Below, piece after piece: positions 1,032 to 7,100 of a stretch of 7,100 nucleotides of DNA (its first letter is position 1; the number at the start of each line of letters is the position of its first letter). The notes below the pieces were generated by a model. It saw only the letters and a list, made by a program, of their open reading frames with translations. It had not been told where the DNA came from and made no database searches. A program made the position numbers and the translations under genes. The stretch is taken from IMG/VR virus record IMGVR_UViG_2695420456_000022; one strand, 5' to 3'. Origin of the DNA: a virus. Its lineage: Duplodnaviria > Heunggongvirae > Uroviricota > Caudoviricetes.

Positions 1032-2693
1032 TTACACCCCGCTAAATTCTTCCAGTTTCTGGCGGTGGCTGTCGCTTATATCAAAAGCAAAATCCTCATG
1101 CTCTGCCTGGAATGTACCAAACGCCATCAGCGCCGCCACGCTCGGGTCTATCTTGTTCGGTGATTTTTTCTTGTTCGGCTTGATATTGGCGTTCGCGTCA
1201 CTCTGCATCACGACGTTACTCATCGACCAGGACAACACCGGATCGCCACGATGCACAATCACCCTGCGGTTAACAAAAACTTCGAACGATTTCGCCGCCG
1301 GACTGAATCTGAGGTAGGTTTGCGGGAACGGCTCCACCTCAAAACCTGCCCCCTGTAATTGCGTTCTGAGATGCGTGGCGTTCCACGTATCAAAGCCCAC
1401 CAGCCTGATATTAAATTTCTCCGCGTCCTGCATGATGTCATCTCTGATCCGGTCGTAATCAATGCAGTCGCCAGGCGTTGTGCGTATCCAGCCTGCTTTA
1501 GCCCACTGACGATAGATGGCGCGGTTTTTATTGGCGGGGTTCTGTAGCTGGAACTCCGGCAGATAATGACGGGAAACCAGCATAATGGTTTTACCTACCG
1601 GAAAGGCATAGCACACGCTGGAAATATCGCTTGTGGATGATAAATCCAGCCCCGCGTAACACTCCTGGCCGTGTAAATCTTCCTCCGTGAACGTTCCGGC
1701 ACACTCAGCCCATGCGCCGTTACCCATCCACGGGGTAGTCCCCTGACACCAGATATTAAATCGCTTTGTCATCATCTCCACCCACTGCGACGGAATACCC
1801 CGCGCTTTCTGGATGGTTGAGGCCAGTTTTTCACGATCCACGGAAACATCAATATTAGGGTTCGCCTTTATCCACATCGCCGGATCATCAACCTCGTTTT
1901 CGTCGTCCAGTTCGTAAATCAGTACAAAAATTGAATCGTTAACCTCTTCGCCGTCCAGGATCTGGCAGCAATAATCATAGTGCTGCTTACAGGCTGAAAC
2001 GACGTTGCTGCCTGATGTGGTAATGGCAAATAACAGCCCTTCGGGACGTGCGCCCATCCCCAGCTCAAGCGCGGAATAAACGCCGTTATCGGGGTGCAAG
2101 TGGTATTCGTCCACGATGGAAAGGCTGGGGTTTGTTCCCTCGATGGTTGCCGCTTTTGCTGCCAGCGGCTTTAACAGGCTGTTGCTTTTCGGGTGTATCA
2201 CCTTATGCGCCTGAATATTCACCCGCCTGCGTAACGGTCGGGATAAAAGGCACATCTGACGCGCATCATCAAAGACGATCCGCGCCTGGTCACGGCTCAC
2301 CGCTGCGGTGTAGATATCCTGCTGACCGTTCTCCATAATCAGAAACCAGTTAGCCAGAATCGCGGCGGTCGTTGATTTCGCATTTTTGCGCGGCACTTCG
2401 ATAAAGGCGCTCGTATATTTGCGCCGTCCGGTGGCCTTAACCTTAAAGCCGAGGATGCACGCAAAGGCGAACTGCTGCCACGGCTCCAGCTCAATGGGTC
2501 TGCCACGCATCGGCCCTTTTACGTGCGGGCACACCCTGGAAAAGGCAATAAACCGATCCACAACCTCACGATCGAACGTGTAAAGGGGGCTTTTAAGGTC
2601 CGAAAAGTACCGTTTAACGGCCTGTTTCAGCCGTTTACAGGCCGGAATTTTGCCCGTTTTTACGTCTTCTGCGTACCTATTCCAGGCGGTCAA
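1032..2693 (-). CDS. terL: Terminase large subunit (ATPase + nuclease), HK97-like Terminase_1 type
   Basis: 553-aa ORF with a P-loop-like VPRKNAKSTTAAI, Walker B-like LSIVDEYH and a C-terminal nuclease-like region (AGLDLSS..., LVGFDTWN). The start codon at 2693-2691 is TTG, preceded by GAGGA at about -11. Confidence 0.92.
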   Translation of the reverse strand: MTAWNRYAEDVKTGKIPACKRLKQAVKRYFSDLKSPLYTFDREVVDRFIAFSRVCPHVKGPMRGRPIELEPWQQFAFACILGFKVKATGRRKYTSAFIEVPRKNAKSTTAAILANWFLIMENGQQDIYTAAVSRDQARIVFDDARQMCLLSRPLRRRVNIQAHKVIHPKSNSLLKPLAAKAATIEGTNPSLSIVDEYHLHPDNGVYSALELGMGARPEGLLFAITTSGSNVVSACKQHYDYCCQILDGEEVNDSIFVLIYELDDENEVDDPAMWIKANPNIDVSVDREKLASTIQKARGIPSQWVEMMTKRFNIWCQGTTPWMGNGAWAECAGTFTEEDLHGQECYAGLDLSSTSDISSVCYAFPVGKTIMLVSRHYLPEFQLQNPANKNRAIYRQWAKAGWIRTTPGDCIDYDRIRDDIMQDAEKFNIRLVGFDTWNATHLRTQLQGAGFEVEPFPQTYLRFSPAAKSFEVFVNRRVIVHRGDPVLSWSMSNVVMQSDANANIKPNKKKSPNKIDPSVAALMAFGTFQAEHEDFAFDISDSHRQKLEEFSGV

Positions 2694-3033
2694 GCTCGTC
2701 CTCTTCTTCTGTTTCCGGTGGATTTTTACGGCGGCTTATCGGGTCAAAACCGAGCAAGGAGGCCATTTTTATCATCACTCTTTCCGCGTCGGATTTCGCG
2801 CTTAATGCGGGGTTTCTGCTCTCGCCGCCCTGACTGTTAACAATGCTGAACCCGCGCGCCGCAAGGTCTGCGACGGCTTTCCGGTATATCGAGTAATTGA
2901 CGCAATACAGTTCCAGATTGCTCCAGTCGGCGGGAGTCAGGTCACCCCGTTCCGCAAGCTGCCGCGATTTTTCCCGCCACTGCTTCACGGCGATATCATC
3001 CAGGTAGGCGGGGGCTTTCGGTGGTCTTGCCAT
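2677..3033 (-). CDS. terS: Terminase small subunit (P27-family-like)
   Basis: 118-aa ORF directly upstream of and overlapping terL by 17 nt. Sequence (YLDDIAVKQWRE...LELYCVNYSIYRKA...GGESRNPALSA...LLGFDPISRRK) fits my recollection of P27-family small terminases, with an acidic C-terminus. Confidence 0.82.
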   Translation of the reverse strand: MARPPKAPAYLDDIAVKQWREKSRQLAERGDLTPADWSNLELYCVNYSIYRKAVADLAARGFSIVNSQGGESRNPALSAKSDAERVMIKMASLLGFDPISRRKNPPETEEEDELDRLE

Positions 3034-3156
3034 GCTTATTTTTTCGCCAGATTATTTTTCAAAAAATTCCCGTGCATAAAAATTTGAGGAGGCGGTCGGT
3101 GCCCGGCGGGGTCGGGTTTGTCCTGAAAACGCCCCCCACCCCGTCATACAGCCTCA
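3034..3156 (-). promoter_or_regulatory. Intergenic region upstream of terS; candidate cos/packaging-initiation region and/or terS promoter
   Basis: About 120 bp non-coding gap between the small ORF and the terS start. It holds a GC-rich tract (3086-3116, GAGGAGGCGGTCGGTGCCCGGCGGGGTCGGG, with GGTCGG twice), a poly-C/poly-G run (3131-3143) and an AT-rich tract next to terS. The position (HNH / gap / terS) is where HK97-like phages place cos. Confidence 0.3.
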
Positions 3157-3339
3157 TCAGCGATTGCGGAAACATTCCATAACCTCGCGGTCACGGTCGG
3201 TTAATCGCTTCGCTGTGATGCGTTCTGCGCATCCTGACGCTTTATCTTTATGCCCTGTTTCCTGTGTCTTCCATGCGTCACGCTGCCTTATAAGTCCACG
3301 GATAAGGCGGTTTTGTTCCCGCTCATTCATCAGCGTCAT
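3157..3339 (-). CDS. Hypothetical small basic protein (57-60 aa), speculative
   Basis: This is the 3' part of the 134-aa track ORF 3157..3561, which extends beyond the HNH stop. Candidate starts are ATG 3339 or ATG 3330, the latter overlapping the HNH stop as ATGAATGA. Product MTLMNEREQNRLIRGLIRQRDAWKTQETGHKDKASGCAERITAKRLTDRDREVMECFRNR. Weak SD; could be a chance ORF. Confidence 0.25.
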   Translation of the reverse strand: MTLMNEREQNRLIRGLIRQRDAWKTQETGHKDKASGCAERITAKRLTDRDREVMECFRNR

Positions 3340-3763
3340 ACATCCAGTTATTGCGGTTAGCGGCCCGTTCTTCCTCTTCACGAAATCCACCTGCGGCACG
3401 CTTACTTTTTGTTGCCGGATCAAGCCATTTCGTTTTCTGGTTATGGCACGCCTGACACAATGGTTGATGGTTCCATTCGGGCCAGAAGAGAACATCATCA
3501 CCGCCATTAATCGGGATAATGTGATCCACCACCACGGCGGGCGTATATATCCCCTTCTCAAGGCATCGCACGCATAACGGGTTTTTACTCAGATACATGG
3601 CGCGGTATTTGTCCCACTGTCTGGAGTACCCACGCGCGCGGCGGTGTCCTCGTCTGGCATCCTCTGCACGCCATGCCGCCCGCCTGTGCTCCTCACACTT
3701 GCCGGACTTCACGCGCCTGTTACAGCCTGGTTCTGTGCATCGTCTTAATGGTTGCCACGGCAT
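3323..3763 (-). CDS. HNH endonuclease (terminase-associated)
   Basis: 146-aa ORF with Cys pairs (CTEPGC, CVRC, CQAC) and HNH core VVDHIIPINGGDD...NHQPLCQACHNQK. Start ATG overlaps the connector stop (TGATG, 3761-3765). It lies immediately upstream of terS, as in HK97-like cos phages. Confidence 0.85.
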   Translation of the reverse strand: MPWQPLRRCTEPGCNRRVKSGKCEEHRRAAWRAEDARRGHRRARGYSRQWDKYRAMYLSKNPLCVRCLEKGIYTPAVVVDHIIPINGGDDVLFWPEWNHQPLCQACHNQKTKWLDPATKSKRAAGGFREEEERAANRNNWMYDADE

Positions 3764-4059
3764 CAGTACACCCCCACATCACGGTAAGCCGTCCAGAGTG
3801 CACCAATCGTCATGGGTACGCGTGTTTTTGCGTTATCCGCGACAATCTGGCGATTTTCATACAGGTGAGCGATAAACATCATGCAGCCAATCTTTATGGC
3901 TGGCGTGAACTCCAGCCCGTCATCAAAGCGCCTGCCTATGTGTATCTGGCACGCCTCAAGCGATGCGGCAATGTATCCGCTGATTAACTGGTCTTCCTCG
4001 TCGCCATCGATGCGGCAATGGAGTTTCACTTCTTCCAGGGTGATAAGTTCTTCTGTCAT
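3763..4059 (-). CDS. gp6-like head-tail connector protein
   Basis: 98-aa ORF; N-terminus ITLEEVKLHCRIDGDEEDQLISGYIAAS matches the L.E.K.HLRID.D.DD.LI..I.AA signature of gp6-like connectors. ATGA overlap with the upstream gene stop (4056-4059). Confidence 0.7.
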   Translation of the reverse strand: MTEELITLEEVKLHCRIDGDEEDQLISGYIAASLEACQIHIGRRFDDGLEFTPAIKIGCMMFIAHLYENRQIVADNAKTRVPMTIGALWTAYRDVGVY

Positions 4060-4394
4060 TTTTCCGCGCCCTCACGACAAAGAATTTCAAGGCGTGTCCT
4101 GGCGGCATCCGGCAGCGGCTGCCCGATGATATTCAGTACACGCCCCGCCAGCGGCCCCGTATTGACCTTTATCCGGCTGGTGGCGTTGATGTCCTTCCTG
4201 TAGCGTATCCATACCCTTACCGTTCCAGTCGCCAGTTCTGCACCCGATGAAATGGCCTCCTTGCTGCTGATCATGTTCACGCTTGCCCAGAGTGTGTGAC
4301 CGTCCACCCACGTTTCGAGTATTTCGCCCGTCATGGCTCTGGTCTGTTTCAGGGTCTGAATCGTTACCCTGTCACGCAGTCGCCCTATGTTCAT
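4056..4394 (-). CDS. Head-closure / head-tail adaptor protein (HK97 gp7-like, Phage_H_T_join-like); the ORF track starts it at 4436, but the ATG at 4394 is favoured
   Basis: Sequence MNIGRLRDRVTIQ...VRVWIRYRKDI...RLEILCRE matches the head-closure family pattern. The ATG at 4394-4392 overlaps the portal stop (4393-4391) as ATGA and has AGGGAG upstream; the 4436 ATG has no SD. Confidence 0.7.
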   Translation of the reverse strand: MNIGRLRDRVTIQTLKQTRAMTGEILETWVDGHTLWASVNMISSKEAISSGAELATGTVRVWIRYRKDINATSRIKVNTGPLAGRVLNIIGQPLPDAARTRLEILCREGAEK

Positions 4395-5602
4395 TCCGGT
4401 TTTTCTCCCTCGCTGATTTTTACTTCCTGTTTCCATGCCTGGCTGAACTCATCACCACCATCACGCGGTGACAGTCCTTCACGTTCGCGGGCTTCGTTCG
4501 GACACATAACGCCGGATTTGATGCCGCGCTCATAGGTGGCAAAGCGTTCGCCAGGTGTGGCCCGTAACAGGTCCGCGCTGTCAAACTCCACCTGATACCG
4601 GATACCAGGTACAGGCGAGGCCACCAGCAGGGCGTTTTTTATCTGCTGCTCAAAGTTCGCCAGCCACGGGCGCATCGTCATGGTGAGAAATGCGCGGCTT
4701 GCCTCGCTGAAATTGCTGTAGGTGCTGTTGCTGTATTCCTGCAAAAAAATCGGCGAGACGTTGAACATTCTGGCGATGTCTTCAATGGTGAAGCGACGGG
4801 AGGCCAGCCATTCAGCATCCTGATTACTCATGCCCAGCTGCTGATAGCTCATACCCCCTTCAAGGATGGGCGTTTTTCCGGCGTTTCTGGCCCCTTTGTA
4901 GCGTTCCAGTGCGGCTAATGCCTGTTTGCCCTTCACGCCGTCCAGCCATTCGCCTGACGTGATAACCCCTGCCGCCATCATGCCATCACGCATCACGCTC
5001 GCGCCGTGGCGTTGTTGGGCCAGCCCAAGCCCCAGCGATTCGCGGCAGATGGTTACAGGTGAGCGCCCCATAAAACCGTCATCCGTGGAGTAACGAAGGT
5101 GGAGAACCTCCCACGGTAAATAGTTGCGGGTGTTTCCGGTGTAGGCGTCAGTGATGCAGTAGCGCCAGTTATGCTCACCTGTCTGCTCAACGTTCACCGA
5201 CTGCGGCGGGTAAGGATGCAAAGCGACCGGAAAACCATCACGCCCCCACTGAATCACCGCATAAGCATTACCGTTTAACAGGCAGTGGCGGATCATCATT
5301 CGCTTAAACTGGTAGGGGGTTTGCCATGCGTTCGGGCGCTCGTTGAGGATGTGATCGACCGGATGAGAATCAAGCCACTCGCGGGCCTCCTTCCCCTTCT
5401 CATTGCGTACCAGGTACAGGTAACACGGCATGGTAGCCACCGCCTCAGAGATGACCGTCACGGCGTTCATGACGGCGGGCAGTGATTCCGCTGTCCCCGA
5501 TGATACGTACTCACCCGCCCCCGTGTTCGATGTGCCAGCCAGCGCCATAAACTCATCAAGCGTCATGCTGCGCTGCTCTTTTTTTCTTCTGAAAGGCCAC
5601 AT
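4391..5602 (-). CDS. Portal protein, HK97 family
   Basis: 403-aa ORF whose length and conserved blocks (LLNGNAYAVIQW, EVLHLRYSTDDGFMGRSP, RFTIEDIARMFNVSPIFL, RPWLANFEQ) fit the HK97-type portal pattern. Its start is 1 nt after the protease stop, and a GGGGGTG SD-like element lies upstream. Confidence 0.88.
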   Translation of the reverse strand: MWPFRRKKEQRSMTLDEFMALAGTSNTGAGEYVSSGTAESLPAVMNAVTVISEAVATMPCYLYLVRNEKGKEAREWLDSHPVDHILNERPNAWQTPYQFKRMMIRHCLLNGNAYAVIQWGRDGFPVALHPYPPQSVNVEQTGEHNWRYCITDAYTGNTRNYLPWEVLHLRYSTDDGFMGRSPVTICRESLGLGLAQQRHGASVMRDGMMAAGVITSGEWLDGVKGKQALAALERYKGARNAGKTPILEGGMSYQQLGMSNQDAEWLASRRFTIEDIARMFNVSPIFLQEYSNSTYSNFSEASRAFLTMTMRPWLANFEQQIKNALLVASPVPGIRYQVEFDSADLLRATPGERFATYERGIKSGVMCPNEAREREGLSPRDGGDEFSQAWKQEVKISEGEKPE

Positions 5603-5603
5603 A

Positions 5604-6176
5604 TCACACCCCCGCTAAATCCGCCCACCAGCGGCGATTATCCGCACGCGGCATTTTTTCGGGGTGCTGCTCATACAGGGAACGGCGGGCCAGCTCCACG
5701 TCGGAATCAGGGTAAGCCGGTACGGATGTAACGGTAATTTCGTACAGTTCCGCCACCAGCACGGTGCGCACGCATGGATCTGTTGTGGTATCCCATACAT
5801 CCTTACGGGAACGAAAGCCAAAGCTCATGCCGGATATATCACCTCGTTTAACCAGTTCGATAACGTCGCGCCCTGTACTGGTATCCGGTGGGGTCAGTTC
5901 AAAGCGTAACCCTGTTTCGTCCTCTTCCAGTTTCAGCGTGCCGGAACGGGTGCGCCCCAGTAACATGCTGTGGTCATGCTCATACAGGCCGCGAACGTCA
6001 TTACCCGCCGCAAGCCATTCAGTAAACGCCCCCCGCTGGAATTTTTCGTAAAACTCACCCCATAACAGTTCTGAAAGCTTATCCCAGCGAACAATGTAGC
6101 CCGTCAGCGTACCGGCTCCGCTGGTGGTGATTTCCGATGACCGGATTTCCATACTCTTCATAATTTTTTCACCCAT
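5604..6176 (-). CDS. Prohead maturation protease, HK97 family (S78-like)
   Basis: 190-aa ORF with motifs GYIVRWD, GAF, YEHDHSMLLGRT (candidate catalytic His) and GMSFGF (candidate catalytic Ser), then YEITVTSVPAYP. ATG at 6176 has no obvious SD; the ATG at 6161 (MKSMEIR...) is preceded by GGGTGA and may be the true start. Confidence 0.85.
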   Translation of the reverse strand: MGEKIMKSMEIRSSEITTSGAGTLTGYIVRWDKLSELLWGEFYEKFQRGAFTEWLAAGNDVRGLYEHDHSMLLGRTRSGTLKLEEDETGLRFELTPPDTSTGRDVIELVKRGDISGMSFGFRSRKDVWDTTTDPCVRTVLVAELYEITVTSVPAYPDSDVELARRSLYEQHPEKMPRADNRRWWADLAGV

Positions 6177-6215: not shown

Positions 6216-7100
6216 TTAATCGTCGTCCTGTGGCAGTTCCAGAATCTTGATCGCGTTCGAATCCACCACGCCACCGCCTAAATATTTCTGCGCGAAAATT
6301 TTGATGAAGCCCGGCTCTGTGAGGTTGTCCGGTCTGGTGCGAACACCTGTTTCGTGATCAACAATGTAGTAACCGCGTTTGAAGTCACCCAGGGCAATAA
6401 CGTTATCCGGCATAAACTCCAGATATTCGACCGGAAGGCCCAGCAACGTATCAGGATCACCCGCCTGTAAACGGTCACGCCAGATGTAATCACCGTTCGC
6501 GTTCTTCACCTTCTGGAGTTTTGCCGCCGTCGTGGAGTTAACCACCCAGACCGCGTTTTTGCGGTATTTTTTACGTAATGCAAATTTCAGGTCGATCAGC
6601 GGGTCCGCAGATGTCCACGCCAGAGATTCGGAAGGTTTAATTACCTGCAACGTACCAAAATCACGCTCTTTGTCGTTCTTCTCTGCACGGGGTACGGATA
6701 AAAAGCCTTTTGCTTTTTTGTCACCGTCGCCCACAACCAGATCGCTTTCTTCGGTTTCCGTGAAGGTGTCGCCAATCTCGCCCGTCAGCCATGAAAGGAT
6801 GTCCACATCGGAAAAATCCACGATTTCCTGCGTGGTGCGCGGGTACGCATAGACCGGATACAGCTTAATGCTCACCTCGTTAATCTGCGGGGTGCTGGTC
6901 TGTTCGCGTGCCTTACCCTCTTCACCGTGGTTAACGGTCGCACCGCCAGCGGAAACAAGCTGCTTAAACTCGTTGCTGCTGATTTTCTTCGTAAGCGTCG
7001 TCTCAGCACCGTCTGGCAGATCCTGAAATTCCTGAGAGAATAGTGGACACCAAATATGGTGGACGCTATCCATGAAATCATTAACCGCAGTGCGTAAAAA
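6216..7100 (-). CDS. HK97-fold major capsid protein, 5'-partial (reading frame stays open to the window edge at 7100; the ATG at 7073 is probably internal)
   Basis: The C-terminal half (LLGLPVEYLEFMPDNVIALGDFKRGYYIVDHETGVRTRPDNLTEPGFIKIFAQKYLGGGVVDSNAIKIL) matches the conserved pattern I associate with HK97-family capsid proteins (L.G.PV...MP....GDF...Y.I.D..G..........F.......GG.V.D..A.K.L). There is no in-frame stop between 7073 and 7100 and no Shine-Dalgarno before the 7073 ATG. It sits next to protease and portal genes. Confidence 0.8.
   Translation of the reverse strand, partial: FLRTAVNDFMDSVHHIWCPLFSQEFQDLPDGAETTLTKKISSNEFKQLVSAGGATVNHGEEGKAREQTSTPQINEVSIKLYPVYAYPRTTQEIVDFSDVDILSWLTGEIGDTFTETEESDLVVGDGDKKAKGFLSVPRAEKNDKERDFGTLQVIKPSESLAWTSADPLIDLKFALRKKYRKNAVWVVNSTTAAKLQKVKNANGDYIWRDRLQAGDPDTLLGLPVEYLEFMPDNVIALGDFKRGYYIVDHETGVRTRPDNLTEPGFIKIFAQKYLGGGVVDSNAIKILELPQDDD

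Follow-up and report, generated by a model that had tools for sequence, protein, structure and literature searches.

Where does a satellite that packages its own DNA carry the site at which its terminase starts and ends packaging? This question is raised by the 7,100 nt of DNA that were analyzed here (the whole stretch is called the window in the following), which are the packaging half of a capsid-forming PICI (cf-PICI) of the EcCIEDL933 type in E. coli. All real genes in the window are located on the minus strand (Table 1), and from the capsid gene through terL neighbouring genes adjoin or overlap each other and form one operon. A gap separates the packaging genes upstream (HNH and a 60-aa ORF) from terS; it is delimited by the stop codon of a 60-aa ORF at 3157 and the terS start at 3033 (minus strand). 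An earlier note on this DNA had proposed that the window contains two competing cos candidates, i.e., this gap and a palindrome/repeat region at 372-482. The position of cos is not given in two papers on cf-PICIs, both of which mention cohesive ends (10.1101/2022.09.08.507074, 10.1101/2025.02.11.637232).

Table 1. Genes and gap blocks of the window, and landmarks of the compared cos sites. Positions are window coordinates; landmark positions are counted from the cut. Identities are mean pairwise values.
Feature	Position	Strand	Remarks
Capsid gene	6216-7073	minus	truncated by the window edge
Prohead protease	5604-6176	minus	
Portal	4391-5602	minus	
Head closure protein	4056-4394	minus	as annotated; the longest ORF reaches 4436
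Head-tail connector	3763-4059	minus	
HNH endonuclease, packaging module	3323-3763	minus	Pfam PF01844
60-aa ORF	3157-3339	minus	annotated WP_072127963.1; between HNH and the predicted cos
HNH-terS gap	3034-3156		non-coding, 123 bp
G-run block	3143-3119	minus	identity 0.75; GGGGTGGGGGG (3142-3132), then GTTTTCAGGAC
Spacer	3118-3101	minus	identity 0.49; fixed length, free sequence
CCGCC box, predicted cosN	3100-3083	minus	ACCGACCGCCTCCTCAAA; identity 0.85
AT-rich block	3082-3052	minus	TTTTTATGCACGGGAATTTTTTGAAAAATAA; identity 0.87, highest in the gap
terS leader and ribosome-binding region	3034-3051	minus	length and sequence vary in the alignment; outside the conserved core
terS, small terminase	2677-3033	minus	P27 / Terminase_4 family; Pfam PF05119, E 1.3e-23
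terL, large terminase	1032-2693	minus	ATPase and nuclease domains; Pfam PF03354, PF20441
Small ORF downstream of terL	737-1018	minus	
Landmarks, HK97	G-run -51..-43; T-tract +24..+30		from the cut
Landmarks, SfV	G-run -54..-46; T-tract +5..+11		from the cut
Landmarks, window	G-run -54..-44; T-tracts +7..+11 and +23..+28		from the predicted cut
Landmarks, KpCIDSM30104	G-run -54..-45; T-tracts +7..+12 and +23..+29		from the predicted cut

The window region is 100% identical to E. coli FORC_042, and among the matches listed it has 99.4% identity to many chromosomes of O157:H7 and other Shiga-toxin-type E. coli. In FORC_042, the element is located between phoQ and roxA, and it also encodes an integrase, an HTH regulator at the AlpA position, a RepA-family helicase, and a PerC-family regulator, while the annotation contains no tail genes in the element. 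The features of a cf-PICI were thus all found, namely int, an alpA-type regulator, replication, the genes for capsid, protease, portal, and connectors, the hnh-terS-terL genes, a size of about 15 kb, and the lack of tail genes. The membership was judged from the FORC_042 annotation, from Pfam, and from the family description, and the same organisation has been published for cf-PICIs with EcCIEDL933 as the prototype (10.1101/2022.09.08.507074). The 60-aa ORF upstream of the gap has no Pfam family. It overlaps HNH at the stop codon of the latter, and the cf-PICIs of the Enterobacterales have kept its 3′ end (...ECFRNR); the ORF is missing from the Pasteurella element Pmp8. At the other end of the window, positions 1-280 share about 90% identity with part of the chromosome of E. 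coli CFT073. This fits the published sharing of int, alpA, and rep between EcCIEDL933 and EcCICFT073, and it suggests that the two islands also share terminal or att-proximal sequence.

The base composition of the gap is uneven. The GC-rich tract described in the earlier note is real, with a GC content of 0.74 over 3086-3143 and of 0.84 over 3086-3116, compared with 0.53 for the whole window, and so is the AT-rich flank adjoining the terS start, where the GC content is 0.27 over 3034-3085. The C-run at 3131-3143 (GCCCCCCACCCCG) is likewise present; it is the reverse complement of the G-run GGGGTGGGGGG, which is conserved across genera. For the proposed GGTCGG direct repeat the result was mixed. 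The two copies exist (3094-3099 and 3110-3115), but 33% of the shuffles of the GC-rich tract also contain a direct repeat of a 6-mer within 31 nt, and GGTCGG was not reported as a repeat family by the repeat search. Furthermore, the copy at 3110-3115 lies in the freely varying spacer, where relatives have CCGTCC, CCCAGC, etc. instead of CCGACC. The repeat is thus at chance level and not conserved, and therefore it carries no information by itself and was rejected as a functional signal.

The DNA upstream of terS was gathered from 80 IMG/VR loci, 39 loci of species-representative genomes, and 80 metagenome loci. The species-representative loci include Klebsiella, Citrobacter, Enterobacter, Kosakonia, Pantoea, Erwinia, Serratia, and Pectobacterium, as well as Rahnella, Aeromonas, and several Pasteurellaceae. 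Thirty-two distinct cross-genus sequences could be aligned without indels from the G-run to GAAAATAA. They were used to build a profile of 94 positions, in which profile position p corresponds to window coordinate 3146 - p. The mean pairwise identities of the blocks (Table 1) were computed on 29 cross-genus sequences, and the terS gene provided the baselines, with 0.49 at third codon positions and 0.84 at first plus second positions. The G-run block, the CCGCC box, and the AT-rich block are about as constrained as the non-synonymous positions of terS. The spacer drifts neutrally, its identity being equal to the synonymous baseline, while its length stays fixed, with zero indels in the 32 sequences; it holds one of the GGTCGG copies and one arm of a non-conserved hairpin. 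The consensus of 108 distinct cores is AACGGGGTGGGGGAGGTTTTCAGGAC, followed by 18 variable nt and ACCGCCCGCCCCCTCAAATTTTTACGCACGGTAATTTTTTTGAAAATAA. This conservation spans the cf-PICIs of three families or groups, i.e., Enterobacterales, Aeromonas, and Pasteurellaceae, and the motif is present in 79 of the 80 metagenome loci.

The ends of database records were considered as a further source of evidence for cos and were discarded. Most of the 80 IMG/VR loci are prophages called in isolate genomes, and none of the 80 begins near terS. Two of the 80 metagenome contigs (L151 and L178) do begin near terS; these are ordinary breaks, and L151 has the whole gap. The record of Pmp8 is uninformative, as terS is located at 10.4-10.7 kb of 15.3 kb. 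A separate observation concerns Pasteurellaceae bacterium Macca (LVZB01; loci L113-L120 and L130), a single assembly with at least 10 terS homologues. Most of these have neither a G-run nor a CCGCC box upstream, and two (L116 and L120) carry the cos motif, which suggests that Macca contains either numerous related satellites or another family of elements that uses a different packaging site.

Two systems with mapped cohesive ends were available for comparison. The cos site of HK97 (AF069529) has a 10-nt 3′ overhang, and the TerS protein binds at +15..+29 (PMC11331095, PMC9410871); cleavage is stimulated by the HNH protein gp74. For SfI, run-off sequencing of virion DNA established the cohesive end as TGCCCGCCCC, and the cohesive end of SfV is described as having a single-base difference (PMC3636060). 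In the HK97 record, the gene for gp74 is located at the right end and terS at the left end, and in SfV the HNH gene is immediately upstream of terS. The placement of the gap between HNH and terS is the arrangement of both phages, which bears out what the earlier note had said of cos in HK97-type phages.

The cf-PICI gap profile was compared by nhmmer with the whole genomes of HK97 and SfV, which had been rotated to make cos internal. For HK97, the top match of both strands (E 0.051, profile positions 4-85) spans the cos junction, and the next match has an E-value of 2. For SfV, the top match (E 0.16) abuts cos and begins 3 nt into the record. The scores of 8.6 bits (HK97) and 6.9 bits (SfV), versus 6.2 and 5.5 bits for the reversed-genome controls, are not significant on their own, and when the gap was locally aligned with each cos junction in turn, the scores were 17 (HK97) and 19 (SfV), no better than dinucleotide shuffles. 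Therefore, the argument rests on the location of the matches and on their register, and in this respect the comparison with HK97-like cos sites, which the earlier note had proposed as a check, came out in favour of the gap. In the window itself, the profile has a weak second match at 6264-6308 (plus strand, 8.7 bits, E 0.0086). It falls within the 3′ end of the capsid gene, on the opposite strand, and is probably noise.

The register was the same in both phages. In HK97, the overhang CGCCGCCAAA falls on columns 48-57 of the profile, the equivalent of 3098-3089 in the window, and the SfI/SfV cohesive end (positions 8-17 of the SfV record) aligns to the very same columns. At these columns, the cf-PICI consensus is CGCCCGCCCC and the window has CGACCGCCTC; the SfV/SfI cohesive end shares nine of its 10 positions with the consensus and seven with the window. 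In HK97 as in the window, the 10 nt before the cut are GC-rich. The CCGCC box as a whole aligns with GACCGCCGCCAAA in HK97 and with TGCCCGCCCCATC in SfV. The surrounding landmarks also occupy similar distances (Table 1): a T-tract starts at +24 in HK97 and at +23 here, and SfV shares with the window the T-tract directly after the cut and the distant G-run. This shared register is the strongest support that the mapped cos sites provide, although a non-cos signal upstream of terS that is common to the profile and to HK97 and SfV could contribute to the matches. Taken together, the gap has the gene context of an HK97-type cos and resembles mapped cos sites in sequence and layout, with scores that are weak alone.

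The proteins and the overall organisation show both similarities and differences. The TerL of the window is 27% identical to HK97 gp2 (E 1e-46), and the HNH protein is 39% identical to HK97 gp74 (E 2e-19). In contrast, BLASTP detected no similarity between TerS and HK97 gp1, which belong to different sequence families, and therefore a transfer of the TerS-binding site from HK97 is weak. The nucleotide similarity to HK97 is weak overall (8.6 bits). The TerS of SfV belongs to the same Pfam family (Terminase_4) as that of the window, but the two are only about 36% identical. SfV also has no second T-tract and no GCACGG motif, both of which are found in the cf-PICIs. Furthermore, HK97 is a complete phage, and SfV and SfI are complete Mu-tailed temperate phages, whereas the element of the window is a tail-less satellite, in which the packaging genes come after the head genes and not before them as in HK97.

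A Klebsiella homologue allowed the sequence-based prediction to be compared with the ends of an assembly made from particle DNA. LR881103, 'Escherichia phage vB_KppS-Ant', is a linear record of 16,548 bp. Both its last 2,400 nt and its first 2,800 nt show 100% identity to locus L093 of K. pneumoniae ATCC 13883, the same type strain as DSM 30104. Ant was isolated on DSM 30104 and recognised as its induced prophage; its sequence was obtained from particle DNA by Nextera XT library preparation and SPAdes assembly, and it was published as a filamentous ssDNA phage (PMC8006926). In the preprint, packaged KpCIDSM30104 DNA was reported to concatemerise through cohesive ends (10.1101/2025.02.11.637232). 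The complete identity to the ATCC 13883 element and the isolation history together mean that Ant is KpCIDSM30104. The assembly is linear and of unit length, and both of its ends are at one locus. Between these ends exactly 69 bp are missing, which are homologous to 3119-3051 of the window and contain the predicted cohesive end. Thus, vB_KppS-Ant is the cf-PICI KpCIDSM30104 minus 69 bp at the predicted cos.

Libraries made by tagmentation give poor coverage of the final few tens of bases of a linear molecule. No hole would result from a circular or permuted template, and reads of 250 nt would bridge a dropout of 69 bp caused by GC bias. With the predicted cohesive end, the loss would consist of 21 bp of duplex plus the overhang on one side and of 38 bp on the other side; the hole brackets the ends, without placing them at the level of single bases. 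A second assembly from a phage lysate, PQ569648, also breaks on both sides of the gap, and its cf-PICI part begins at the start codon of terS and ends just short of the stop codon of the 60-aa ORF. This record (PQ569648.1, 'Klebsiella phage P12620-1', L004 / L091) has a size of 106.5 kb and is apparently a chimeric assembly, in which the last ~16 kb (~90.6-106.5 kb) are the cf-PICI part and are joined to unrelated phage sequence.

KpCIDSM30104 and the element of the window have the same gene order, their TerS proteins are 84% identical, and the layout of the gap is equal in length base for base. The two differ in the sequence of the spacer, in the cohesive end, for which KpCIDSM30104 has the variant CACCCGCCCC, and in the accessory genes after terL. 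One of the Ant ORFs after terL (2036-4333, 765 aa) carries the annotation of a tape measure protein, an odd product for a satellite without tail genes.

Because the HNH-terS context, the constrained blocks, the HK97/SfV register, and the break in KpCIDSM30104 all converge on the gap, 3143-3052 (minus strand) is predicted to be the cos site of the EcCIEDL933-type cf-PICI, with a probability of roughly 0.85. The gap is the best cos candidate in the window; it is built like the cos sites of HK97 and SfV and lies where a cos site was to be expected. By analogy with the two mapped ends, the cohesive end would be CGACCGCCTC (3098-3089, minus strand) with 3′ polarity, and for this exact placement we regard the chances as about even.

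The alternative that survives best is that the blocks are a promoter, an operator, or a translational leader for terS-terL and that cos is elsewhere, or that the region serves a dual purpose, which we consider improbable. The blocks are located directly upstream of terS and are AT-rich with T-tracts, and a weak pair of hexamers can be found by eye (TTTATG, 18 nt, AATAAT). However, a scan for sigma-70 promoters revealed no promoter-like site on the gene strand, and the genes from capsid to terL form a single operon of abutting or overlapping genes. In addition, a promoter would leave unexplained why the G-run is fixed 44-54 nt upstream, why a neutral spacer has a fixed length, why the sequence matches two mapped cohesive ends in register, and why the particle-derived Ant assembly breaks at this site.

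It is very unlikely that the gap is instead a pac-type initiation site for headful packaging, which would generate permuted ends. The TerS recognition sites of pac phages are likewise located in or near terS. However, the HNH gene adjoins a terminase related to HK97 gp2, and HNH is described as a hallmark of HK97-type cos packaging (Kala et al. 2014, as referred to in 10.1101/2022.09.08.507074). Moreover, cohesive-end concatemers were reported for packaged KpCIDSM30104 DNA, the linear, unit-length Ant assembly ends at a single locus, and the CCGCC box is nearly identical to the SfI cohesive end; all three observations argue against headful packaging.

The rival region downstream of terL fared still worse. 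A cos site at 372-482, with the HNH-terS gap being a mere spacer, was made attractive by the repeats: 365-487 contains three palindromic units, each 17-18 bp long and ACCCCAAATTTGGGTAT-like, as well as a perfect palindrome of 20 bp, GAGTTGCAGATCTGCAACTC. Its 123 bp are conserved as a unit in many E. coli genomes and often match alone. The surrounding positions 1-736 are not core E. coli DNA, as any part of them matched in only 1,383 of 5,426 genomes. In strain CFS3313, the 123-bp module is located at the clpS-proximal end of a classical PICI (L132), which carries a terS-like gene and a lambda-type capsid gene. According to PMC9026076, classical PICIs use a lambda-like cosN as their cos, and it is situated upstream of rpp rather than at the end of the island. 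The module is absent from KpCIDSM30104, and the linear Ant assembly is unbroken through the region downstream of terL. Some related loci (L080 and L082) have two copies, which is the behaviour of a mobile module. Furthermore, a search for lambda cosN-like sequences (GGGCGGCGACCT) with up to two mismatches revealed none in the window on either strand, so that no lambda-type cos was found, and the cos profile had no match in 1-736 with an E-value better than 0.3.

The element of the window also differs from the classical PICIs in its packaging strategy. Classical PICIs such as EcCICFT073 (cosQ-cosN) copy the helper cosN GGGCGGCGACCT with its 12-nt 5′ overhang and use the helper terminase via Rpp, whereas the element of the window has its own terminase and HNH protein. 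The similarity is that the cos of EcCICFT073 is also satellite-borne, lies just upstream of a TerS-like gene, and gives packaging specificity. In summary, of the two cos candidates in the earlier note only the gap stands; 365-487 is not credible as a cos, as it is unlike any of the lambda-type and HK97-type cos sites compared. It is a module that is mobile or att-proximal and may have an att-arm or a regulatory role.

The least probable reading, which sees in the GC-rich tract a structural RNA, the hairpin of a terminator, or a composition that arose by chance, can draw on an inverted repeat of 10 nt (3107-3116 / 3134-3143, 90% complementary), but this repeat is lineage-specific, one of its arms lies in the variable spacer and the hairpin is lost in relatives, the fold z-score of the gap RNA is an unremarkable -0.93, the terminator scan found no terminator-like site, Rfam yielded no match anywhere in the window at E-values up to 1, neither an intrinsic terminator nor a structured RNA was thus recognised in the gap, and chance fits poorly with conservation across families.

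Packaging from a cos site in the gap could proceed as follows. After induction, the satellite would replicate into concatemers. Its own P27-family TerS would bind to the AT-rich block at 3082-3052 just downstream of the cut, which is the predicted TerS-binding (cosB-like) site; the equivalent of the HK97 TerS site at +15..+29, with which the T-tract of the block is in register, would be 3074-3060 (CACGGGAATTTTTTG). TerS would then recruit TerL, and TerL and the HNH protein would nick both strands in the CCGCC box. The top-strand nick is predicted between 3089 and 3088 by analogy with HK97 and SfV, and the cut would most likely leave the 10-nt 3′ overhang CGACCGCCTC. Packaging of the DNA into capsids made by the satellite would start on the terS side and move through terL, the att junction, and int to the capsid genes and HNH, ending at the next cos. 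The G-run block, 44-54 nt upstream of the cut, would enter last before the cut and may help termination, so that candidate roles for it are a cosQ-like element or an element for termination or nuclease positioning.

A more far-reaching idea is that the G-run together with the free spacer of fixed length is an undescribed cos sub-site common to HK97, SfV, and the cf-PICIs, which sets the cut by distance, and that the AT-rich block of the cf-PICIs with its GCACGG motif and second T-tract keeps the packaging of satellite and helper exclusive. We put this forward tentatively and consider it rather doubtful in its full form. The sub-site may act as a cosQ-like element or may position HNH or TerL.

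The result is a well-supported annotation and contains nothing unexpected for an HK97-like packaging module. One consequence is the correction of database records, e.g., of vB_KppS-Ant, which had been published as a filamentous phage, and the comparison points to a candidate G-run sub-site shared with HK97 and SfV. The cf-PICIs fill their own small capsids exclusively with their own DNA, and tails are all that they borrow. For this family, there is now a concrete prediction, with a core at 3143-3052 and a cohesive end at 3098-3089, which makes the specificity of packaging directly testable, and the predicted core would be the minimal cis-element for building DNA delivery vehicles based on cf-PICIs.
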